NCBI GenBank assembly: GCA_963710605.1 | Contig: CAVQBA010000004.1 | Coordinates: 512,001-576,000 of the forward strand | Source: an uncultured cyanobacterium | GTDB taxonomy: Bacteria; Cyanobacteriota; Cyanobacteriia; Cyanobacteriales; Cyanobacteriaceae | Direction: 5' to 3' | DNA length: 64,000 nt | Part shown: positions 17,962 to 31,999 of the stretch, piece after piece | Position numbering within the stretch: position 1 is the stretch's first letter | How the letters are laid out: the number at the start of each line of letters is the position of its first letter | Notes under the pieces: model-generated | Told to the model about the DNA's origin: nothing | Databases searched by the model: none | The model's input: only the letters and a program-made list of their open reading frames with translations | Made by a program: the position numbers and the translations under genes

Positions 17962-18558
17962 TTATTTTCCAGTTTTACTTCGGCGACGTGGTTTTGCTTT
18001 AATTTTGGTACGTACTTTTTTTTGTTTAACTACTTTACTCTTAGTTGCCTTTTTTTTCTGAAATGCTTTGAGACGACTACCAATTTCATCAGCTAGATAA
18101 TGACTCATTGCCCCCAATTCTAAACCAATCAATAAAGCAAAAGTTTGAGTTAAATAGTCATTTATTATTTTTTGATAACTAGTTATAACTAGTTGTTGCC
18201 AATTCCAATCAAAACCCCAAATTAACTGAGCGATGGCAACTATCAAAATAGCCGTTACGAATAAAATTATACTTAGATATAACAGTCTGATAATTGTACC
18301 GATGAGGAAGCCATGAGATAAAAACGATCGATGTTTAAGATTTTTTTGATAAGGTAGCCAGATAAACTTAAACCATCCCCAACGTTTATATTGTACTGAG
18401 TAAATATCTAAATCTGGACCAAACATCAAACCACTAAATACAAATGCCGTTGCTGTTATTATTGCTATGTCTAATTTTTTTACTAATAATAAAGTAATGA
18501 TGACAATTAGAGGAAAACATATCCAAGTAATTCGATCGTGTTTTTTTCCTGAAGGCAT
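17962..18558 (-). CDS. DUF2227 putative metal-binding membrane protein
   Basis: MPSGKKHD, GPDLDI, HRSFLSHG, SHYLAD. Confidence 0.88.
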   Translation of the reverse strand: MPSGKKHDRITWICFPLIVIITLLLVKKLDIAIITATAFVFSGLMFGPDLDIYSVQYKRWGWFKFIWLPYQKNLKHRSFLSHGFLIGTIIRLLYLSIILFVTAILIVAIAQLIWGFDWNWQQLVITSYQKIINDYLTQTFALLIGLELGAMSHYLADEIGSRLKAFQKKKATKSKVVKQKKVRTKIKAKPRRRSKTGK

Positions 18559-19601: not shown

Positions 19602-20093
19602 ATGAAAGCTAGAGAAATTATTCAAATTATTATTTTTATTCTGATAGGTTTAGCATTTATGTTTGGACTACAACCTTATTTATTTGATCAAAGAATACTA
19701 TTTGGAGTAGTAAGGAGTGTCACCTATAGTGAATGGATTGAGCAATATACCCTAGCCGCCGCAATTATCTTCGGTATTTCTGTTATTTTCACCATAATTT
19801 GGTGTGTGTTATTGTTAAAAAACCAAGATGGTAGTTACAGTACATGGAAAGCAGTTTGGTATGTTGGTTTATTTGTCTTAACCCTAATTGTGATTGGCAC
19901 AGTTTATATCAACAATCAAGATGACAATGGCGAATTGATTAGAGAAACTTTTATGCCGATGACACTCTGGCTTTTATTTGATTCATTATTTTTGCTTTAT
20001 TGGCTACCCACAGTAACTAGTACGCCCGGATTGTTAAAGAAAAAAGCAGTACCCGGAGCAATTTTAATTAATGATTTAATTGGCAGAAATTGA
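19602..20093 (+). CDS. Four-TM membrane protein, first gene of tubulin/actin-like locus
   Basis: Four hydrophobic segments; 33 bp before the tubulin-like gene. Confidence 0.85.
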   Translation: MKAREIIQIIIFILIGLAFMFGLQPYLFDQRILFGVVRSVTYSEWIEQYTLAAAIIFGISVIFTIIWCVLLLKNQDGSYSTWKAVWYVGLFVLTLIVIGTVYINNQDDNGELIRETFMPMTLWLLFDSLFLLYWLPTVTSTPGLLKKKAVPGAILINDLIGRN

Positions 20094-20126: not shown

Positions 20127-21624
20127 ATGGCTTTTTATGTAGTCGGGATAGGTGGCACAGGTGCAAAATGTATTGAGGCAATTATTCAACTAGCTTCTGT
20201 GGGTTTGTTTCCCACTAATAAGCTTAAAGTAATGTTTGTTGATGCTGATGAAACTAATGGTAACTTACAAAGAACACAGACTAGTTTAGGTATTTATCAA
20301 AAATGTCATCAATTACTCAGCGGTAAACATGATGAATGTGATTGGATGACAACTAATATTGAATCTTACTCAGTTTGGTCTCCTTTTGGTAATAAAAATA
20401 CGGATAAAAAACTTGGTTCTTTTTTTGGTTACAATACTTTAAAACAACAAAACCCAGCTTTAGCTAGCTTATTTGATGTTTTATACACTGAAGATGAACG
20501 AAAAGTATCTTTAGAAGTCGGTTTTAGAGGTCGTCCTGCGATCGGTTCTGGTATAATGACTCAGATTGATTCTCGATCGTTTAGAAGAAGAACCATGGCG
20601 TAGTTTCATCAACGAAATTGTCAACAATTCTAGTAGCGGTGGTGAAACCAAAGTATTGCTTTGTGGTTCAATTTTTGGTGGTACAGGTGCATCAGGCTTA
20701 CCCACGATCGGTAGATTAATTGCGAATAAGTTAGAAAAAGAAGGTGTTAGAGAGAAAGTTAAATTAGGTTGTATCTTCGCATTACCTTACTTTAATTTTC
20801 CGAAAGGCTCAGCTAATGAACAAGTTTATGCAAGTTCAGATTTATTTTTACTTAACACCGAAGCCGCTCTTAGGTATTATCGAGAGCAAGCTCAACAATT
20901 TGATGCTAAATATTTAATCGGGAATCAAACCTTTGAAAAACTAGGCGAATTCAGCATTGGGAAAGATACCCAAATTAATCGCCCTCACTTTGTTGAGTTT
21001 TATGCAGCCTTAGCCGCCCGTAACTTTTTTTGTGAGCAACCTGAAGAAGCTGTACACGTTATCAGTCGTCATCAGACAGGTTTACTCCGATGGGATGATA
21101 TACCGAATAGTAATGAAGTCAAAAGCAAATTAGTCAATGCCACTCGTTTTGCTTTTATTTGGTTAGCTGATTTTCAGTTTCAATTACAACTAGGTAAAAA
21201 TCAAGGTATAGGTGAATTAAACGGGTTAGGTTGGTTTGATAAATTTTTTCAAGGAAAAGCTCTATTTAGGAAAACCAGAACACATTTACCTGACTTGAGT
21301 GAAGCTCAACAACAAGAAGCGATTAAAACGATCGATAATTGGTGTCAAGACTACTTACGCTGGCTAAGTGATATTCATATTTGTGATAGCGAAAAAATCG
21401 AGTTATTTAAAGCCCGTGAGCATTTTCTTAATGGTAGAGGATTGAAACCCGAAAACTTCGCCGATTTGTTATTTGACGAATCTCGTACTAAAGATGATTT
21501 AACACAAGATAACCTTGTCAAACTCAAAAATACAATTTCAGAATTGGATACAACTAAATTTGGCGAACCAAATCAGGGAGTAGCAGGATTAGCTAAAGCA
21601 GTCTATGTTTGTTGCAAATTATAA
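20127..21624 (+). pseudogene. Divergent tubulin/FtsZ-like GTPase (Tubulin_2-type), split by +1 frameshift near 20571 (~498 aa if repaired)
   Basis: VVGIGGTGAK, FVDAD, GFRGRPAIG in ORF 20127-20603; tubulin-signature loop GSIFGGTGASG and LPYF in ORF 20566-21624; AGGAG SD at 20112. Confidence 0.85.
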
Positions 21625-21784: not shown

Positions 21785-24700
21785 ATGGCAGATTTAATCT
21801 TATCCAAACTAAAAGACGACACCAATATTACTAAAGGGCAACCAGCACAATGGGAAGCCCGAAGTGATAAAGCATTTAGAGACGTAGCCGATAGTCTTGA
21901 TTATCAAGCCCCCGGTGTGATCAAAAATGTTAGTTCAGTACCGACAATGTGGGCTCGCCCTCTGATTACTGAAATGGCTTTATATGATCAAAATCACCCG
22001 ATTCATGAGGCGATGGTAGCTCAATGGCGAGGAATGTTAGCTGTTATTGCATTAGCAGAGATAGAAGGATTTGATCTCCAAGTTCAACTAATCGACTTAA
22101 GCACTCAACGTTATCAACCCTTTGGTGAAGCACTTTATCAACTTATTCCCGAACCAATCAATGCCCTTTATACCAGAGAAGGTAAAAACCCGTGGGAAGA
22201 AGTCTATGTTTTTGTCTGGCAAGGTAAACCAGTAGGTATGACCAGCCCTAGTACTCTTGTCTGTCCATCCGAAGAAGGAAAATGGACAGGATTACGTTGG
22301 TGGCAAAATGGTATGATTCAAAGCCCCGAACCATTTTTGAACGAAGAATCAAAAGAACTACTTTGGCGATGGTTAGAAAATATTCAAAATAATCTTACTA
22401 CTTATAATGGCTCTTCTGTAGCTGTTAATAAAATGATTGGTTTGATTGTTCAATTTAGAACCGATTTAGCAATTGAGAATTCCGCACCTGCCCCTTTAAA
22501 TTTAAGTACTAATCCTAACTTTTTTGGTGAGCCAATCAATCGAGGTGCATTAGTTTTACTTAATAACCCCGTGCGAATACCGCCTCAACCTTCAAACCTT
22601 AGAGTAATCCCTAGTGCAGTTAAAACTAGTGTTAAACCCCTAATTATTATTGACGAACAAATAGCTGATTTTTGGGGGCAACCTAAACAAAATATTTGGG
22701 TACATCAAGATAAAACTTTGGCTTCATTAAATATTGAAGATTTAAAAAACGGTAGGTTAGTTTGGGATGATGTTAACTGGATTACTTCTGCTGAATTATT
22801 TCTTGAAGAATTATATTTTATTGATTTAGATGATGCTTTACCTGGTGCTATCGTACCTCAATCAAATATTCCCCTTACTTTTAACAGTGAAAAAGTTACG
22901 CCTTTAATTCCCCTTAATCCCATCTTGTTAGACTATTTCACCCCAGAAGACTTGGTTAGTCATATTGAAATTGAACCATTTAACAATATTAATGGGCAGG
23001 GGTTACGACTAATTCTCAATTTGCCCTTATCAGGTATAGCCAATCAGAAACAATTTCAAGCTTATCGTCTGCAAAAAGAATATATTTTACATGAAGAAAA
23101 CGCTTTTAAATATTTACCTGTTTTAACTTTATGGCCGAATTTTCGATCGACTAACTGGCAACAATATTATACATTTTATTACGATGGTGATTATGGTGAT
23201 GAAACCTTCCGTGTTTTTGTACCTAATCAGGAAGTACGTCAATTCAAAGCCCCTGATGGTACAGGCTCGTATCAACTAGCTACAATGAACCAAATGCCTA
23301 GTCATGTAGTCTGTAAGGATAGTTACTACAAAGATATCGGTTTAATTCTGTTACCGACACTACCAGAAATAAATTCTCGTGGTAAGTGGAATGTAGGGGT
23401 TGATTTTGGTACTTCTTTTACTAATGTTTATGTCAAGGGCGAAAATACAGGTGATTTTCCTTTAGAGATGAATAAAGAATTACAATTGAATATTACCGAA
23501 AGCCCTATCCAGACTCGTTTACCTGCTTTACTTGAAAGTTTTGTTCCTGAAAAGTTTTTACCTTCAGAAGAGCCTTTACCTCTATCTACAGTATTAACTA
23601 CTAAAAACGGTAATGTTGATGATGGAGAATTACAAGCGATTCTTGATGGACGTATGTATGTACCAGATCCAACTGAATTTGATCCGAATAAACAATGGAT
23701 AAAGTTAGATTTAAAATGGTCAAATCTGAAATATTCTAAAGCCTTTTTACGTCATTTGTGTTTACATATTTCGGCTTTAGCCACTCAAGCGGGGATGAAT
23801 AGTATTGACTGGTGTATTTCTTATCCTAGTGCTTTTGCTTATGTCGATCGACTTACATTTCATCGTAATTGGCAAGAAATCGGTGAAGAATTAGCACCAA
23901 AGACTGGTATAAGTTATTCTTGCCCTGACATTGATGATACTCAACGTTTTTGTACTGAGAGTGTGGCTTTAGCTCAATATTTTAATGATAAAGAAAAACA
24001 TCCTTTAGTTTTAAATACTTGTATTGATATGGGTGGTGGCACATCGGATGTATCTATTTGGGAAAATCGTCGTATTGTTTATCAATGTTCGGTTTTATTT
24101 GCAGGTAGAAATATTTTCTCCGAAATTTTAGCCCTTAATCCTCCTTATGCTCAAAAATTAATGGCGGAATTTAGAATCAATAAAGATTGGACAGATTTGG
24201 GTGAAGTTTCGATCATGACTAATATTGATGTAGCCTTAAGACATTATGCAGAAGAATGGTTAGCTCAACAACGAGTTTATAAAAATGATGATACTTATTT
24301 CCAACGTTTAGTTACTCTAACCGCTTTAGGTGTAGCTGGTTTATATTATTATATTGGTCTAATTTTAAAAGTACTTCATACTGAAGGTAAATATAGTAAA
24401 GCCCAAATTACACCTGTTTATATTGGTGGTAATGCGTCTCGTTTTTTACATTGGCTTTCACCAACTGGTAAATACGATCAAAATTCAGAGTTTAATCAAT
24501 TGTTGAGTTTGATGTTAAGTAAGGCTTCTGGTTTTGAAGATAGTCAGGAAAAAACTCGTCTTAGCACTCGCCCTAAACATGAAGTCGCTTGTGGTTTGGT
24601 TTTAAGTAATACTCAATTAGTGGGAATGACAGAAAATAGCGATTGAGATCCTATTGCAGGAGAGAATTATTATGTAGAATATTATGATGATGATAATGAC

Positions 24701-25120
24701 ATTGAATATAAAGAAGAAAAAAGTTCTCATTCTCGTCTCCATTTTCAAGGTAACATAACTGATTTCAAAATAGATAAGTTAGATAATCTCGAAAAATTTT
24801 TATATGAGTTTAATGCAGGAATAAAAACTCTTAAAATTCAAAGTATCAAACCTCTAGCAAAATCAGATTACAAATTACAAAAACCTCAAGATAAAGATAA
24901 AAATCAAGATAAGGATAATTATAATCTTGAGAAGGACGAAACTACGACTAAAGACAAAAATAGTGAGCTTTGGAAAGATGTAAAATACCATCTTGAAAAT
25001 GAGTTATTAGATGTAAGAGGAGATGCCACTAAACTCGGTGAAAAAACTCCTTTTATTATGGGTTTGAAATCTCTTTTACATACTTTGGGTAAACGTTGGG
25101 CTGATTCTTACAAAGAATAA
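21785..25120 (+). pseudogene. Large protein with unknown N-terminal domain and actin/Hsp70-fold ATPase domain; in-frame TGA at 24644-24646 (953 aa, or 1111 aa with readthrough/repair)
   Basis: Phosphate-1 VGVDFGTSFT, SYPSAF, TESVA, phosphate-2 IDMGGGTSD, FAGR, adenosine YIGGNAS; frame stays open 157 codons past the TGA to TAA 25118-25120. Confidence 0.85.
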
Positions 25121-25121
25121 A

Positions 25122-25168
25122 TTAGAATTCGGAATTCGGAATTCGGAATTCCGAATTTGGAATTCTAA
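25122..25168. repeat. GAATTCG heptamer repeats forming an inverted repeat
   Basis: TTAGAATTC...GAATTCTAA ends with internal GGAATTC units, directly after TAA 25120. Confidence 0.7.
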
Positions 25169-25253: not shown

Positions 25254-25976
25254 ATGTCTGTTTCTCAAACTAAAAAATGTCCTATTTGTGATACGCCTTA
25301 TACTCAAAGTCAAAAGCGATGTAGTCAATGTAGTTGGGATTTGACATTGTATCACGATGGTTTTTTGTCGAACGAGCAATCATTGAAAGTTCATATTTCA
25401 GCTCGAAAAATTTATAGTTATCTACAAAAATATCGTGAAATGGTTAAACAAATGCAACAAAAAATAAAATTGTCTCAAAAAAAAGAAGATGATTTACATG
25501 ATGAAAACGATCGATTAAAGCAAGAATTAGAGGAATCAAAACTATTACCATTACAAATATATGAACTTGAATTACAAATTAATAAGTTACAAACACAAAT
25601 TAAACAACTAGAGTCAGAAAAAAGAGAAAATCAGATTGAAGTTAATCAAAGTTTGGAACAATATGTAATAAATCAAGATAATCGAAATACTAGTTTTGTG
25701 TCTAAAAAAGGAATTCAAGTAACACCGACTAAAAAAAGTTTAGAAGATATTTATTTGAATAAAGCAGATGAAATCGTTTTTGAGGTATCGAATCAAAATG
25801 ATTATTGGATAGTAGAATTAGAATCAACAGTTTATTGTTTATTACCAAATAAAAATTTAGATATTAAACGTAACTTGAAAGCGATTAGACATTTTTTTGA
25901 ATTAGTTGATTATCAAGATAATACAACTTGGGAAGTGGTTAAATTAGCTTTAGTTGAAAAAATAAATATCGATTGA
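25254..25976 (+). CDS. Zn-ribbon + coiled coil + locus-specific C-terminal domain (paralogue 1); homologous frame extends past TGA to 26012
   Basis: CPIC-x10-CSQCSWDL, heptad-rich middle, DYWIV..LLPN; *WKFKTQGILQF follows the TGA. Confidence 0.85.
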   Translation: MSVSQTKKCPICDTPYTQSQKRCSQCSWDLTLYHDGFLSNEQSLKVHISARKIYSYLQKYREMVKQMQQKIKLSQKKEDDLHDENDRLKQELEESKLLPLQIYELELQINKLQTQIKQLESEKRENQIEVNQSLEQYVINQDNRNTSFVSKKGIQVTPTKKSLEDIYLNKADEIVFEVSNQNDYWIVELESTVYCLLPNKNLDIKRNLKAIRHFFELVDYQDNTTWEVVKLALVEKINID

Positions 25977-26051
25977 TGGAAGTTTAAAACACAAGGTATT
26001 TTACAGTTTTGATTATTACTAAATAACAATAAGTTATCTTACTATGAAATT

Positions 26052-26786
26052 ATGTCTTCTACTCACACTAAACAATGTCCAATTTGTGATTCAACTTGTT
26101 TATCGACAGAAACAGTTTGTACAAAATGTGGCTGGGATTTAACAATCAATCATGATTGTCATCTAGATGAAAAAATATTGCAGAAAATTCAAACAGTAAC
26201 TCGTAATGTTTATCAAAAATTCAGAAGATTAACGAAACGTTATCGCCAAGAAAGAAATGAATTAAAAACTCAAATGGATGAAATTAAAGATTTACCAAAA
26301 CAAATGTTTCAATTGCAACTACATGCTTCTAAATTAAAAAAAGAAAACGATCGATTGAAACAAGAAATAGAAAAATTACAAGTTGACAAGTTGAAGACGC
26401 AAATTGAACAATTTGACGATAAAAAAAGTAAAGACAAAATGAAGGTTGAAGAAAATATAGAGCAACATTCGATCGTTCAAGATTATCAAAATACTGATTT
26501 TTTAATGAAAAATGGTATTAAAGTAACGCCTACAAAAAAAACCTTAAAAGATATTTACTTAAATACAGTTAAGGAGATTATTTTCTATCCTGCTAAAGGT
26601 AATGATTATTGGATAGTGGAATTAGAATCAGGAATTTATGGTTTACTACCAAATGAAAATCTTGATATTAAGCGTAACTTAAAAGCGATTAGATATTTTT
26701 TTGAATTGATTGATTATGATGATAATTCTACTTCTACTTGTAAAGTGATTAAATTAGCTCAAGTTGAGAAAATAAATATCGATTGA
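26052..26786 (+). CDS. Zn-ribbon + coiled coil + locus-specific domain (paralogue 2); homologous frame extends past TGA to 26822
   Basis: CPIC-x10-CTKCGWDL; same 3' end as paralogue 1. Confidence 0.85.
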   Translation: MSSTHTKQCPICDSTCLSTETVCTKCGWDLTINHDCHLDEKILQKIQTVTRNVYQKFRRLTKRYRQERNELKTQMDEIKDLPKQMFQLQLHASKLKKENDRLKQEIEKLQVDKLKTQIEQFDDKKSKDKMKVEENIEQHSIVQDYQNTDFLMKNGIKVTPTKKTLKDIYLNTVKEIIFYPAKGNDYWIVELESGIYGLLPNENLDIKRNLKAIRYFFELIDYDDNSTSTCKVIKLAQVEKINID

Positions 26787-26861
26787 TGGAAGTTTAAAAC
26801 ACAAGGTATTTTACAGTTTTGATCATTACTAAACAACACTAAGTTATTCTACTATGAAATT

Positions 26862-27791
26862 ATGTCTTCTACTATTTACCCTAAAAAATGTCCAATTTGT
26901 GATTCAACTTGTTTATCGACAGAAACAGTTTGTACAAAATGTGGCTGGGATTTAACTTTGAATCATGATTATCATCATCTAGATGAAAAAATATTGCAGA
27001 AAACTCAAACAGCAACTCGTATTGTTTATCAAAAACTAAAAAAACTAACGAGCCGTTATCGCCAAGAAAGAGATGAATTAAGAACTCAAATGGATGAAAT
27101 AAAAGATTTACCACAACAAGTATTTGAATTACAATTACGGATTTCAGAGTTAGAAAAAGAAATAGAATCATCGTCTTTACAACAAAAAGATATTGAGCAA
27201 TTAAAGCAAGAAATATTATTAGAATTAGAAAATAAATTTAGAGATATTATTGAAAGACAAAATTTACAATCCACAGCACCTTCATCTAATGTTTTAAAAG
27301 AAAATTTCAAACAAGAAGAAAACGATAATATTCGAGCGACTGAAGATATTGATAACACTGAAAACAAACAAGAAAAAAACGATCGACATGATAATCAGCA
27401 ACCACAAATAAATAATAATGAAGAGAGTTATGTTATTAGAGAGTATTCTCAAAATACTAAAGTTTTCTCTCAATATACTTATAAAGTTACACTAACAAAA
27501 AAATGTTTAGAAAATATTTATATTAATAGAGCAAATGAAATTATATTTGAAATTTCTAATCAAAGTGATTATTGGGTATTTAATCACAATACAATACATT
27601 GCTATTTGTTACCAAAATTAGATTTTAAAATTAATATTAATATTAAAGCAGTAAGAACAATCTTTGAGTTACAACAATATAAAGAAAATAATACTTCTAA
27701 GCAATTTTTAGTTACCAAACCTGCTCGTGTTCAAGAAATAGACAATCAAAAGTGGAAATTAATCGAGCGAGGTATTCTCAGTTTTAACTAA
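26862..27791 (+). CDS. Zn-ribbon + coiled coil + locus-specific domain (paralogue 3, intact)
   Basis: CPIC..CTKCGWDL; DYWVF..YLLP..KPARV..WKLIERGILSF. Confidence 0.87.
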   Translation: MSSTIYPKKCPICDSTCLSTETVCTKCGWDLTLNHDYHHLDEKILQKTQTATRIVYQKLKKLTSRYRQERDELRTQMDEIKDLPQQVFELQLRISELEKEIESSSLQQKDIEQLKQEILLELENKFRDIIERQNLQSTAPSSNVLKENFKQEENDNIRATEDIDNTENKQEKNDRHDNQQPQINNNEESYVIREYSQNTKVFSQYTYKVTLTKKCLENIYINRANEIIFEISNQSDYWVFNHNTIHCYLLPKLDFKININIKAVRTIFELQQYKENNTSKQFLVTKPARVQEIDNQKWKLIERGILSFN

Positions 27792-27833
27792 TTTATTATT
27801 AATATTATTATGAAAAATAAAGTACAAAATAAT

Positions 27834-27860
27834 CCCCCTCTATCCCCCTTTCAAAGGGGG
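27834..27860. repeat. REP-like hairpin CCCCCTTT-C-AAAGGGGG
   Basis: Inverted repeat; related element at 41288-41318. Confidence 0.6.
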
Positions 27861-27954
27861 AAGGTTAAGGATACTTCACTTTTGTTTGAGGGGAGACTTA
27901 CAAATAATGAATGTACATCATAATGATGAAAAATTCTATATTATTAATATTATT

Positions 27955-29454
27955 ATGAAAAATAAAGTTATTCAATTAATTATTATCGGCTTTTTTTTAC
28001 CTATATTTTTAAATAGTTGTAATCAAAATAATCAGCAAACTAACCAAACTAAAAGTGAGGAAGAAAAAATAGCTGAAGTAGTTACTATCGAAGAAAAATG
28101 GAGTGATGAAAAACAACAATTATACGATACTCTTAAACAAGAATATATTGCTTTTAATCAATATTTACAGCCTGAAAGCGATTTACTAAATCTGTTTGAA
28201 GAGCAAAGTAAAACTTCACCAACTAATATTGAGTTTAATCCTTCAAATCCAGATACAAATGAAATAGTTAATTTTACCGAGCAATACCAAAAGTTTTTTG
28301 ATTCTATTAGTGAATTAGAACAAGAATTTCCTGTAGAGCAACAAAATGTAGTTGAAAATATAGCTACGCAACTGAAGCAGTCTTCTGAAGATAATATTAG
28401 TTTAGCATCGATTGAATCTTTATTAGATGACCAGCAACTAACTCAAACAGAAATTTGTGAAAATATACAACTACCTTTACAAATAATAACTCAACAAAAT
28501 GACCCTGATTGTGGTATTTTTGGTCAGCAAACTTATACCGAATTAACTAATTTTTTAATACAAGAAAATCAAGAATTAGAATTTAAAATTAATCAACTAG
28601 ATACGATTGTAACACAACTTAAAAACTCCGAGCAAGAATCTTTAAATTCTAATATTAATCAAAATAAAGATAAAACAAATATTACTCAAAGTAAAGTAAA
28701 AACTGATAATTCGTTACCTATAGTTTTGCTTACTATTACTATTATTTTTAGTGTATTAAGTTTAATTGCTAGTATCTTCAACTATTTAGCAATTAAAAAA
28801 TTAAAAACAAGCAATCAACAAGCTAATGAAAATATAGATGAAAATAACAAAACAGAAATTGAACAATTAAAGTCTCAGATTGACAGCTATCTAGAAAAAA
28901 TAGCAATATTTGAAAGTAATACTCAAAAAATTCAAAATACTTTAGAAAATCAATCTATCACAATAAGAGAATTAGAAAATAAAAATCAACCTAAAAATAT
29001 AAACCCTTCTCGTATTAATAACTTACCGCCACAAAAATTATCTTCTAATTCCGAGGTATCAACAAATACTCATTTAGCACAAATTTATCAGCAAAATCCT
29101 AATAACCTACTACAAAATGGAACAAAAGTGGGTATGACAAAACAAACCACTAACAAAATTTTAGGTGGTGTATGGGATAATATTTTTTTAGAAGAAAATA
29201 GACGTACAGGAGAATACATAATTGTTAATCGTAATAACAGCGATAATAACAAATGTTATCTGTTTTTAGATCCTCATTCAATGTTTAATCCTCAGACTTT
29301 GGGTACTATTCATAAATCAGGTTTATTTGTTTGTCATGGTAACTTAGCCCAAAGTAGAAAGGGAGGTGAAATTACCATCAATAAACCCGCAACCGTAAAC
29401 AAAACACAACAAGGCTGGATGTTGATAGAAGCAGGAGAAATTAGTTTACCTTAA
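27955..29454 (+). CDS. Predicted lipoprotein with internal TM, coiled coil and locus-specific C-terminal domain (paralogue 4)
   Basis: Start moved to ATG 27955: MKNKVIQLIIIGFFLPIFLNSC signal/lipobox; TM LPIVLLTITIIFSVLSLIASIF; ends KPATV..WMLIEAGEISL. Confidence 0.82.
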   Translation: MKNKVIQLIIIGFFLPIFLNSCNQNNQQTNQTKSEEEKIAEVVTIEEKWSDEKQQLYDTLKQEYIAFNQYLQPESDLLNLFEEQSKTSPTNIEFNPSNPDTNEIVNFTEQYQKFFDSISELEQEFPVEQQNVVENIATQLKQSSEDNISLASIESLLDDQQLTQTEICENIQLPLQIITQQNDPDCGIFGQQTYTELTNFLIQENQELEFKINQLDTIVTQLKNSEQESLNSNINQNKDKTNITQSKVKTDNSLPIVLLTITIIFSVLSLIASIFNYLAIKKLKTSNQQANENIDENNKTEIEQLKSQIDSYLEKIAIFESNTQKIQNTLENQSITIRELENKNQPKNINPSRINNLPPQKLSSNSEVSTNTHLAQIYQQNPNNLLQNGTKVGMTKQTTNKILGGVWDNIFLEENRRTGEYIIVNRNNSDNNKCYLFLDPHSMFNPQTLGTIHKSGLFVCHGNLAQSRKGGEITINKPATVNKTQQGWMLIEAGEISLP

Positions 29455-29577
29455 ATCGAATTAATTAATTATTGATAATTAATCTCTCATTATGTATTTA
29501 TCTTATAATTAGTCAAATAGTAATAATACTTAAAAAAATTAAAGTAAGTAAAATTTTTTTTGTTTGTAATTTAGATT

Positions 29578-30858
29578 ATGACGCAATCTTCTTATGATAA
29601 TGAATCTCAGCTAGAGCCTATTTATGATAAAATTCAACAACTAGATAAAAAGCTACAAAATTTAGAAAAATCTAGCCAGAAAGTAATCGTTACTGGAGGT
29701 AAGAAAAACTTTCAGCCAAAACCGCTATTCGTCAGCCAAGAAGAATTAATTAATTTATATAATTATTTACCAAATACATTGCTTGAGTATATTACTCCTG
29801 TTAATGTTACTGCTGATACCTACAGAGCAAAAACAAATAATAAAGTATATTTAGAATATAATTTGAATGGTTATTATTGGGTGATTTTAACTGAATCTGA
29901 ATCTCAAAAAGATTGTTGGTTAGTACCTAATGCCAATCGTAGAAATAATTTTCATCGTTTGCAAGACAAAATAAAATCTCTATTTATTATTCAAGGAAAT
30001 TTAGATAGTTATGATTATATTTTACAAAAACCAGCAAAAATAGAAATTTTTTCCAACGGTTTAAGATGGATTTTGATTAAGCAAGGTTGTTTACAAATAG
30101 GTAAAACTTCTCCTGCTGAGCAACTAATTAAAAAAATAGAAAATATTGAAAATAATAAAAACAAAGAAATACCAGAAATTATTATTATTAATAGTCAAAA
30201 CAAGATTAGTAAATTAAGTAATCAAATTAAAGAATATCAACAAAAAATTAATTCATTAGAAAATAATATTTATAAGCTTCAGCAAACTATAGAAAGTAAC
30301 TTATTAAGATTAAACAAATTAGAAAATCTAAATTTAAATCAAAATTACGACAATTGTTCATTATTACAACAATTAAAACAAGAAATATTATTAGAATTAG
30401 ATAATAAATTAAAAATAATTATTTCTCAACAAAATATTAATAGTTCTCAAGTAAAAAAAGAACATAATCATCAACTACAAATAAATAGTAAAGAAGAAAA
30501 AAAATTAATTAAATATTATTATTATAAAAGCGAAAAATTAGCTCACTATGGCTATAGAGTTACGTTAACTATAGAAAGTTTGGAAGATATTTACGCAAAT
30601 AGAGTAAATAAAATTATTTTTGAAAAATTTGCTCAAAGTAATTATTGTATATTTAAACTAAAGTCAGAAATTTACTATTTATTACCTGAATTTAATTTTA
30701 AAATTAGGACTAATATTAAAAGCCTAAAAACAATTTTTACAATTAAAAATTATAGAGATAACATTTCTAAACAATTTGAAGTTATTAAACCTGCCCATGT
30801 TAAAAAAATAAAATCTGACAAATGGGAATTAACAAAGCGAGGAATTCTCGAATTTTAA
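29578..30858 (+). CDS. Protein with two copies of the locus-specific domain separated by a coiled coil (paralogue 5)
   Basis: YYWVIL..WLVPN..KPAKI..WILIKQGCL and NYCIF..YLLP..KPAHV..WELTKRGILEF. Confidence 0.85.
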   Translation: MTQSSYDNESQLEPIYDKIQQLDKKLQNLEKSSQKVIVTGGKKNFQPKPLFVSQEELINLYNYLPNTLLEYITPVNVTADTYRAKTNNKVYLEYNLNGYYWVILTESESQKDCWLVPNANRRNNFHRLQDKIKSLFIIQGNLDSYDYILQKPAKIEIFSNGLRWILIKQGCLQIGKTSPAEQLIKKIENIENNKNKEIPEIIIINSQNKISKLSNQIKEYQQKINSLENNIYKLQQTIESNLLRLNKLENLNLNQNYDNCSLLQQLKQEILLELDNKLKIIISQQNINSSQVKKEHNHQLQINSKEEKKLIKYYYYKSEKLAHYGYRVTLTIESLEDIYANRVNKIIFEKFAQSNYCIFKLKSEIYYLLPEFNFKIRTNIKSLKTIFTIKNYRDNISKQFEVIKPAHVKKIKSDKWELTKRGILEF

Positions 30859-30946
30859 CTTAGAACGATCGCTTTTTGTCTTTACGATAAAAATAAAATT
30901 ATTAAATTAACTATTACTTATATTATCTCTATTTCTAATTTAGATT

Positions 30947-31999
30947 ATGACGCAATCTTCTTATGATAATGAATCTCAGCTAGAGCCTATTTATGATAAA
31001 ATTCAACAACTAGATAAAAAGCTACAAAATTTAGAAAAATCTAGCCAAAAAGTAATTGTTACGGGTGGTAAAAAAGACTTTCAGCCAAAACCGCTATTTG
31101 TTAGCCAAGAAGAATTAATTAATCTCTACAATTATTTACCGAATATATTACTCGAATATATTACGCCTGTTAGTATTACAGCAGATACTTACAGAGCAAA
31201 AACTAATAATAATATTTATTTGGAATATAACTTAAATGGTCACTATTGGGTGATTTTAACTGAATACGAATCTCATAAAAATTATTGGTTAGTACCTAAT
31301 GCCAATAGAAAAAATAATTTTCACCGTTTACAAGATAGAATAAAATCTTTATTTATTATTCAAGGAGATTTAAATAGTTATAATTATACGTTAGAAAAAC
31401 TAGCAGGAATTGAAATTTTAGCTGATGGTTTAAAATGGTATTTAATTGAAAAAGGTTATTTACAGATAGGCAAAACTTCTCCGATAGAACAACTTATTAA
31501 AAAGCTAGAAAAACTAAAAACTGAAAATGGTGAAATACCGCAAAATATTATTGGTTTAGTTGAATCTATTGATTTATATTATCAAAAAACTTTAAATATT
31601 GAAAAAGAACAAAAAGAGCTAACAAAAGCAGTAGTTAAAATAACTGATATAATAATTACTAATAATAATAAGTTAACTAAAACAACTAATAAACTAGAAC
31701 AAACTATTCATAAGTTAGAGAAAGAAGTTTATCAAACGATTGATCATAATCAACAACAAAATTTAGAAAATTTAGCAACTTTTGAACAAAACTTTGAACA
31801 AAAAATAAAAATAATTAGTACTAAAGTAAGCGAAAATTACCAAGAAAAACAAATATTAAGAGATGATTATGAAAAACTAAATAAAGATTTTAAACAACAA
31901 CAAAGAAAAGTTAAAAACATTAATAGTAATCTTGGTTGTCTTAATTTTTTACTCATCGTAGTAGTCTTAGTTTTATCAATAATTTTAATTAATATATAA
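30947..31999 (+). CDS. Locus-specific domain + coiled coil + C-terminal membrane anchor (paralogue 6)
   Basis: N-terminal ~185 aa closely similar to paralogue 5; ends FLLIVVVLVLSIILINI. Confidence 0.85.
   Translation: MTQSSYDNESQLEPIYDKIQQLDKKLQNLEKSSQKVIVTGGKKDFQPKPLFVSQEELINLYNYLPNILLEYITPVSITADTYRAKTNNNIYLEYNLNGHYWVILTEYESHKNYWLVPNANRKNNFHRLQDRIKSLFIIQGDLNSYNYTLEKLAGIEILADGLKWYLIEKGYLQIGKTSPIEQLIKKLEKLKTENGEIPQNIIGLVESIDLYYQKTLNIEKEQKELTKAVVKITDIIITNNNKLTKTTNKLEQTIHKLEKEVYQTIDHNQQQNLENLATFEQNFEQKIKIISTKVSENYQEKQILRDDYEKLNKDFKQQQRKVKNINSNLGCLNFLLIVVVLVLSIILINI

Follow-up and report, generated by a model that had tools for sequence, protein, structure and literature searches.

We describe a protein domain of about 120 amino acids (aa), given the working name DOM, which we favour, with slightly better than even confidence, as the terminal adaptor common to the coiled-coil proteins of an uncharacterised cyanobacterial tubulin-like/actin-like system. 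Seven copies lie across six tandem forward-strand open reading frames (ORFs) at positions 25254-31999 of the stretch that we analysed, hereafter the window: 64,000 nucleotides from the genome of an uncultured member of the Cyanobacteriaceae (assembly GCA_963710605.1, contig CAVQBA010000004.1, positions 512,001 to 576,000), a genome labelled G000 here. Docking of DOM on the ATPase or on the tubulin-like protein encoded just upstream is plausible, given its linkage to their genes in presence and gene order, its recurrent architectures and its fusion to a copy of the ATPase; we infer both the docking and its site from this linkage.

Seven copies of one domain in six tandem genes

The window was searched with a DOM profile made of 57 segments, all from other genomes, the window copies being excluded to prevent circularity. 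The profile gave exactly seven matches, with E-values from 5.8e-21 to 3.6e-32 (Z=1000), no further match among the 123 stop-to-stop ORFs of at least 60 aa in the window, and none among 615 shuffled ORFs. A preliminary description of the window had claimed seven copies of a single ~110-aa domain in six genes. The number stands, the copies align and all are significant with a profile from other genomes, and the length is amended to about 120 aa, since the seven segments align over about 120 columns.

The genes were delimited as ORFs and by matches to the DOM profile, and all lie on the forward strand. Genes 1 (25254-25976), 2 (26052-26786) and 3 (26862-27791) share one architecture: a Zn ribbon, a coil and a DOM of the C-type, one of the two subtypes described below. 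The ribbon (CPIC-x10-CxxC) occupies residues 9-27 of each protein, at 25278-25331, 26076-26129 and 26889-26942 respectively. DOM covers 25653-25973 in gene 1 and 26457-26783 in gene 2, each time ending at a TGA (25974-25976 and 26784-26786) that is followed by an in-frame remainder (to 26009 and 26819); it is complete in gene 3 (27420-27788). Gene 4 (27886-29454, with a probable start at the ATG at 27955) encodes a signal-like hydrophobic segment ending in a Cys (27940-27996), a loop of ~235 aa, an internal membrane segment (28702-28758), a coil and a C-type DOM (29062-29451). If the N-terminus of this protein is exported, its DOM would be cytoplasmic, because it sits after the second membrane segment. 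Gene 5 (29578-30858) carries a DOM at either end of a coil, of the N-type at 29734-30102 and of the C-type at 30493-30855, and gene 6 (30947-31999) joins an N-type DOM (31103-31471) through a coil to a hydrophobic tail anchor (31916-31972). All the partner modules reported earlier, i.e. three Zn ribbons, a lipoprotein-TM-like protein, a tandem copy and a tail anchor, were thus recovered. The coiled coil said to join module and domain was also found: with a crude, home-made heptad score, heptad-like stretches were present in all six proteins and covered 12-34% of their residues, against 1-6% in shuffled sequences.

An all-against-all BLASTP of the six proteins places the copies in three subgroups: the C-terminal parts of genes 1, 2, 3 and 5; the N-terminal parts of genes 5 and 6; and the C-terminal part of gene 4. 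The links between subgroups are weak (E-values from 2e-4 to 0.05 in this six-protein database). The array has been reshaped in the recent past. There are three Zn-ribbon-DOM genes in this genome and a single one at the same place in its relatives, of which gene 3 is the intact counterpart. The first 203 residues of the product of gene 5 are 81% identical to that of gene 6, while its back half is 39% identical to that of gene 3; gene 5 is a chimera, with a gene-6-like front half joined to a gene-3-like back half. The extra copies of the window come from recent tandem duplication and recombination. Two more copies of DOM are encoded elsewhere in this genome, in a 362-aa ORF ~258 kb away (G000:C4:800654-801589). 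This two-DOM gene and a gene for a von Willebrand factor A (vWA)-like protein (G000:C7:399846-401336) are scattered here and adjacent to the operon in close relatives.

Linkage to the tubulin-like and ATPase genes

The co-occurrence of the domain with the tubulin/ATPase pair, proposed as a check in the preliminary description, is borne out across the phylum. In an even sample of 401 genomes, analysed by whole-genome profile searches, 36 had a match to DOM, 34 to the ATPase and 33 to the tubulin-like gene. Both DOM and the ATPase are present in 32 genomes and both are missing in 363; DOM is alone in four (G205, G233, G274 and G357) and the ATPase in two (G093 and G125). The genomes with the tubulin-like gene are those with the ATPase, minus one in which the match lies at the end of a contig. 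Most of the genomes with DOM (33 of 36) belong to the same taxonomic order as that of the window, and within its family DOM was detected in 14 of 19 members at E <= 1 (11 strong and 3 weak matches).

A closer survey covered 41 relatives, the genome of the window included, and counted as strong the DOM matches with E <= 1e-9. Fifteen genomes have both the ATPase and the tubulin-like gene, and no other has either one. Strong matches to DOM were also found in 15 genomes, 14 of which are common to both sets. The two exceptions are G001, a 67% complete genome with DOM and without the pair, and G028, a genome in 850 contigs where the pair is accompanied by a DOM match of only E 0.09. In eight further genomes, the matches to DOM are all weak (E 0.04-0.58).

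The gene order is conserved as well: a small membrane protein, the tubulin-like protein (~500 aa), the ATPase (~1100 aa) and two to seven DOM genes. Scans placed a DOM gene immediately downstream of the ATPase in 26 of the 30 fetched loci. The same adjacency was found in L020 with a later profile and in L039 and L044 among the matches of the phylum survey, leaving L041 as the single exception. At the level of gene content and order, the functional link between DOM and the tubulin-like/ATPase pair is well supported.

The operon is not confined to chromosomes. Two plasmids carry it whole, one of 47.5 kb and mobilizable in Gloeothece verrucosa PCC 7822 (L048, NC_014503.1) and one of 253 kb in Picosynechococcus sp. 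PCC 7003 (L049, NZ_CP016476.1), with nearly all genes annotated as 'hypothetical' in both. Plasmid copies amount to five records, from Gloeothece verrucosa PCC 7822, Picosynechococcus and [Synechococcus] strains.

Architectures and subtypes

Of 182 family proteins, 73 carry DOM at both ends; it is restricted to the C-terminus in 45 and to the N-terminus in 30. The architectures of the window recur in other genomes. The Zn-ribbon-coil-DOM form was found in 16 proteins of other genomes; N-terminal and mid-protein hydrophobic segments followed by a C-terminal DOM were found in at least 20 proteins, including that of gene 4; the DOM-coil-DOM form is common, and the tail-anchored form with an N-terminal DOM is also recurrent. 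The proteins with DOM are a fixed set conserved across genomes rather than the result of free assortment. The preliminary description was right that one domain is joined to different partner modules; its idea that these plug in different sensors gives way to a small set of conserved architectures.

The position of DOM in the protein is reflected in its phylogeny. In a tree of 132 DOM sequences, a clade of 43 holds 41 of the 46 N-terminal ones (quick IQ-TREE run; Shimodaira-Hasegawa-like approximate likelihood ratio test (SH-aLRT) 92), and FastTree recovers a corresponding N-type clade of 44 with a support of 0.954; the support of this tree comes from these quick runs only. The N label changes seven times along the tree, against a mean of 38.3 when labels are shuffled, and none of 500 shuffles gave a value as low. 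These trees show two ancient subtypes of DOM, N-terminal and C-terminal, that follow position. The N-type has its own conserved leader of ~45 aa, made of a helix, a (I/V)x(V/I)TG strand and QPKP (32 proteins examined). The conserved positions are the same in both subtypes (hhalign probability 99.9, E 2e-37). Neighbouring genes of one genome are often 64-88% identical over the C-type DOM and part of the coil, which points to ongoing segmental duplication or conversion.

In two loci, L013 and L017, DOM is fused to a second copy of the ATPase (976 and 1037 aa, respectively), which has an N-type DOM in place of its first ~270-330 residues. Such shortened copies lie at 5948-8878 of L013, 10573-13686 of L017, 13352-15577 of L022 and 9942-12140 of L033; those of L022 and L033 lack DOM and adjoin DOM genes. 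The fusion is the strongest single hint that DOM and the ATPase would act in one joint complex.

Searches for related families and folds

The DOM family is large. An exhaustive profile search of 1.84 billion representatives gave 801 matches at E <= 0.001, of which 433 reach 1e-10 and 51 reach 1e-30. The family members that have names are each a 'hypothetical protein' of Geminocystis or Cyanobacterium species, plus one 'myosin heavy subunit'. The claim that the domain is unnamed agrees with the searches of Pfam and NCBIfam, in which nothing covered the DOM region of the six window proteins at E <= 1. A Pfam scan was made of 106 of the 150 listed matches of the family. No Pfam family matched 91 of these; seven have WD40 repeats, one an FGE-sulfatase domain, and six more have matches to low-complexity or coiled-coil families alone. 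None of the Pfam matches in the 106 proteins overlies DOM. Likewise, the precomputed Pfam entry is '-' for all 43 family proteins with source annotation, and a word-based protein search with gene 3 returned only the query itself.

We modelled the DOM of gene 3 with AlphaFold2, using an alignment of 66 sequences. The model has a high predicted local distance difference test (pLDDT) score of 90.3, a predicted template modelling (pTM) score of 0.84, and a beta-rich body on which two short N-terminal helices are packed. On this model, DOM is a predicted folded unit. Its comparison with known structures gave little. Foldseek found no match in the PDB at E <= 0.001 (best 0.45), and of the 48,161 chains compared with VIA-align, 14 reached Z >= 2, the highest Z being 2.8, and none Z >= 5. 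A search of BFVD gave no match at E <= 0.001, the best hit of a sequence profile search of the PDB was TolR (E 0.44), the ESM Atlas returned unnamed clusters only, and PADLOC and PHROGs gave coiled-coil or weak matches only. The fold of DOM may be new, as far as the model goes, weak or missing matches not being proof of it. A literature search, partial in its coverage, found no paper on DOM or on this operon.

The neighbouring genes

The first gene of the operon (19602-20093, forward strand) is an ORF for a small membrane protein of 163 aa, which we call TM163; its homologues lie directly upstream of the tubulin-like gene in related loci. It is followed on the same strand by the tubulin-like GTPase gene (20127-21624), which is here in two pieces (20127-20603 and 20566-21624) and in relatives a single ORF of ~500 aa. 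The assignment to tubulins comes from Pfam Tubulin_2 (PF13809), which matches eight of the nine intact orthologues at E <= 0.01, with a best value of 5.1e-9. The first member that we scored reached 25.6 bits against a cut-off of 27, the split pieces of the window gave only 0.004 and 0.11, and a PDB sequence search with the tubulin-like protein gave nothing. RefSeq names the Gloeothece copy 'tubulin-like doman-containing protein'.

Next comes the ATPase (21785-25120, forward strand), of about 1100 aa in relatives. The motifs D544-F-G-T-S548 and D751-x-G-G-G-x-S-D758 (DxGGGTSD) are invariant in 25 orthologues, and we take them to be the phosphate-1 and phosphate-2 motifs of the ASKHA superfamily. 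The same 25 orthologues gave weak matches to FtsA (18), MreB (15) and EutA (4) at E <= 0.01, those to FtsA and MreB covering the part with these motifs, and none to HSP70 (PF00012) at this threshold; a weak match to a phage partition-protein family was found in PHROGs. This protein is an actin-fold ATPase, not demonstrably Hsp70-like. It had been presented as an Hsp70-fold ATPase, of which the invariant ASKHA motifs are confirmed, whereas the Hsp70 part finds no echo in Pfam and the weak matches are to FtsA and MreB instead.

A further conserved gene, P520, usually adjoins the operon (its profile matches 25 ORFs in the fetched loci); in this genome, it is on another contig. Residues D60, S62, S64, T154 and D155 are invariant in nine sequences, in a DxSxS...TD pattern. 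Its model (pLDDT 72) aligns, over residues ~46-258, with many vWA domains at Z 4.8-5.9 and has a half made of a beta-sandwich after them; Pfam, a PDB sequence search and Foldseek gave no match. Given this model, P520 is probably a vWA protein.

Other genes were observed in or near these loci. In one family, represented by L020 (9184-9744) and L043 (6299-6862), a gene of ~186 aa lies between the tubulin-like gene and the ATPase, and that of L020 matches Uma2, of restriction-endonuclease fold (1e-35). A cassette encoding a true Hsp70 (Pfam 7e-92), a zinc-finger/LysM protein, two TPR proteins and a true GrpE is found at 6798-13275 of L018 (G029:C182), on the opposite strand and between the DOM genes of a degenerate locus. 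In the window, a reverse-strand ORF at 17962-18558 encodes a DUF2227 metal-binding protein (Pfam 4e-64) that is unrelated to DOM. The spacer between the tail of the ATPase and gene 1 contains, at 25125-25165, a tandem heptamer repeat of about six units, GAATTCG and its variants.

Interrupted genes in this genome

Several genes of the operon are interrupted in the genome of the window. In genes 1 and 2, the in-frame TGA cuts DOM just before its last hairpin. Beyond it, eleven in-frame codons (WKFKTQGILQF) end at the position of the stop in orthologues. At the DNA level, identity is 92% over the 3' ends of these two genes, the spacers behind them and the starts of the genes that follow, which points to one nonsense event copied by recent tandem duplication and leads us to reject an independent origin of the two TGAs. 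A reading of TGA as a sense codon was likewise rejected: in this genome it serves as an ordinary stop, which terminates 503 of 3013 long ORFs and, at the orthologous stop, genes 1 and 2. A single extra base (...ATT GAT T CTC GAT CGT...) shifts the frame of the tubulin-like gene by +1 near 20575-20590, at a site where its orthologues run on uninterrupted as one ~500-aa protein; this may be a real mutation or an assembly error. In the ATPase, an in-frame TGA (24644-24646) takes the place of a codon for K, I, L or F in orthologues, and the 157 codons beyond it (24647-25117) are still conserved up to the terminal TAA (25118-25120).

The system may thus be partly disabled in this genome. Taken further, the array could be a decaying remnant without function, a view compatible with any reading of DOM elsewhere; we consider it a serious possibility, if somewhat short of even. 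The frameshift, the loss from the ATPase of 157 codons conserved in relatives, the truncation of two domains by the same ordinary stop, and the scattering of the vWA-like gene and of the two-DOM gene all speak for decay. However, genes 3 to 6 are intact, conservation remains good in the codons past each TGA, the frameshift may stem from an assembly error, and split or read-through products could be made. Decay at the scale of the genome was not shown, as long ORFs cover 76% of it.

A proposed role and its alternatives

The system that we propose would have as its core the small membrane protein, the Tubulin_2-type GTPase, the 1100-aa actin-fold ATPase and the vWA-like protein. At a membrane, on its cytoplasmic face, the two nucleoside triphosphatases (NTPases) would build or remodel an assembly with a common site, most likely on the ATPase or the tubulin-like polymer, to which DOM would tether a fixed set of coiled-coil proteins. 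The attached set would comprise the Zn-ribbon protein, the membrane-spanning protein with an extracytoplasmic loop, the bivalent DOM-coil-DOM linker and the tail-anchored protein, to which some genomes may add a second ATPase or a WD40 protein. A bolder version, which we put forward tentatively and regard as rather unlikely in full, is that of a hitherto unrecognised, plasmid-portable, two-NTPase machine of cyanobacteria, cytoskeletal or membrane-shaping, in which DOM is a universal connector of new fold and its N- and C-types give the coiled-coil proteins a defined polarity.

Several observations weigh against a shared adaptor. Co-occurrence tables describe rather than test, and ours overstates the evidence because related genomes are not independent. 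Four genomes have DOM without the pair, although one of them, G233, looks like a decayed locus. Some DOM genes lie off the operon, either as a two-DOM gene beside the vWA-like gene (L025 and L026) or as an isolated copy (L027). The near-identity of DOM among neighbouring genes can be plain gene conversion. Finally, comparison of the DOM profile with those of the ATPase and of the tubulin-like protein by hhalign found no relation, so that a homotypic link of DOM to either cannot be argued.

The main rival of a common docking site is pairing among DOM copies: the N-type DOM would bind the C-type DOM, the coiled-coil proteins would build a lattice of their own, and the NTPases would only organise or remodel it. 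The two ancient subtypes that follow position (41 of 46 N-terminal sequences in one clade) speak for such pairing, as do the prevalence of the architecture with one DOM of each type (73 of 182 proteins) and the leader conserved in the N-type. It would also suit the arrangement in which a paralogue of the ATPase bears an N-type DOM and the gene next to the ATPase a C-type. Yet the two types share their conserved positions (hhalign 99.9), which fits one common partner equally well, the main ATPase and the tubulin-like protein have no DOM, and the subtypes are supported by quick trees only. We consider DOM-to-DOM pairing unlikely.

Still less probable, in our view, is a conflict, defence or mobile-element system in which an NTPase switch would be joined, with DOM as the handle, to variable modules for sensing or effector action (WD40, FGE-sulfatase-like, Zn ribbon), much like the effector-associated domains of other NTP-dependent systems. 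The patchy spread of DOM (36 of 401 genomes of the phylum, 14 of 19 members of the family at E <= 1), its copies on plasmids (five records), the stops within genes in G093, G105, G226, G299 and this genome, and the transposase or Uma2 gene beside or inside some loci all speak for such a system. So do the fusions to WD40 (7 of 106 proteins) and to FGE-sulfatase (1 of 106), and GTPase-centred conflict systems do include tubulin and HSP70, according to the parts of the description that we draw on (Kaur et al. 2020, PMC7159879). On the other hand, PADLOC gave no match beyond coiled-coil noise, the architectures of DOM are conserved instead of hypervariable, and enzymatic effector domains were not seen in the conserved core.

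Comparison with known systems

One analogy in composition is found in cell division. The FtsZ system brings together a tubulin-fold GTPase, the actin-fold FtsA, the anchor ZipA and the coiled-coil Zap proteins. The operon likewise combines a tubulin-fold GTPase, an actin-fold ATPase, a membrane anchor and coiled-coil accessories. However, DOM has no sequence relation to any of these proteins, and the ATPase is three times the size of FtsA.

The nearest published description is that of the FtsZl1-vWA operons, predicted to be membrane-remodelling systems (Makarova & Koonin 2010, PMC2875224). As far as the passages of that paper on these operons go, the likeness lies in a divergent tubulin/FtsZ-like GTPase, here matching Tubulin_2 in eight of nine orthologues; in a neighbour whose DxSxS...TD motif is invariant and whose fold is predicted to be vWA-like; in an operon that includes membrane proteins as well as lineage-specific genes devoid of known domains; and in a patchy spread. 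The differences are in the proteins. The tubulin-like orthologues have 488-530 aa, against 910-1127 aa for the cyanobacterial FtsZl1 in the supplement of PMC2875224, and thus lack the FtsZl1 architecture of ~1000 aa with an FtsZ-like domain, a long coiled coil and a C-terminal helical domain. The 1100-aa ATPase and the DOM proteins are constant here, whereas they go unmentioned in these passages, and an OmpA or P-loop GTPase partner was not seen.

Tubulin and HSP70/GrpE themes also occur in the DO-GTPase conflict systems of firmicutes and actinobacteria, which, in the sections consulted here, are defined by the DO-GTPase plus GAP1 and have alpha-helical adaptors (Kaur et al. 2020, PMC7159879). 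They resemble the present system, as described in those sections, in their constant NTPases, in the several operon proteins that share a small terminal domain thought to be recruiting, and in the WD40 and FGE-sulfatase-type modules as fusion partners. They differ in that the published adaptors are alpha-helical, while DOM is alpha+beta. Among the conserved genes of L013, Tubulin_2 was the sole Pfam match, with no GTPase family; DO-GTPase and GAP1 were not recognised there, no dedicated profile having been searched.

A parallel with GrpE-type cofactors had been drawn in the preliminary description, and there is a general likeness, in that a long helical part precedes a small beta-rich end domain and an ASKHA-fold ATPase adjoins. 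The three best VIA-align matches of DOM are indeed GrpE chains, at noise level and far short of what the tool counts as meaningful (1dkg_B, Z 2.8; 4ani_A, Z 2.5; 9bls_B, Z 2.4), with root-mean-square deviations (rmsd) of 3.7-4.8 over 53-77 residues (4.7 over 77 aa for 1dkg_B). Pfam GrpE (PF01025) has no match in the six window proteins at E <= 1, and the same model detects the real GrpE of L018 at 4.5e-20. The parallel is therefore not supported, on account of the noise-level Z scores, of the missing Pfam match and of an ATPase that is nearer to FtsA and MreB than to HSP70.

Concluding remarks

In bacteria, tubulin-like and actin-like proteins are for the most part known from distinct systems of division, shape or plasmid segregation. 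Here, one conserved operon joins tubulin-like, actin-like, vWA-like and coiled-coil proteins, the latter ending in DOM. Naming this domain provides a means of tracing every copy of the system (801 representative clusters match) and a pointer to its likely hub of interactions. The possible disabling of the system in the genome of the window leaves the identity of DOM unaffected. If its fold is new, as the lack of structural neighbours suggests, DOM would be a target for structure determination, and the system is accessible in culturable strains of Geminocystis, Cyanobacterium and plasmid-bearing Picosynechococcus.

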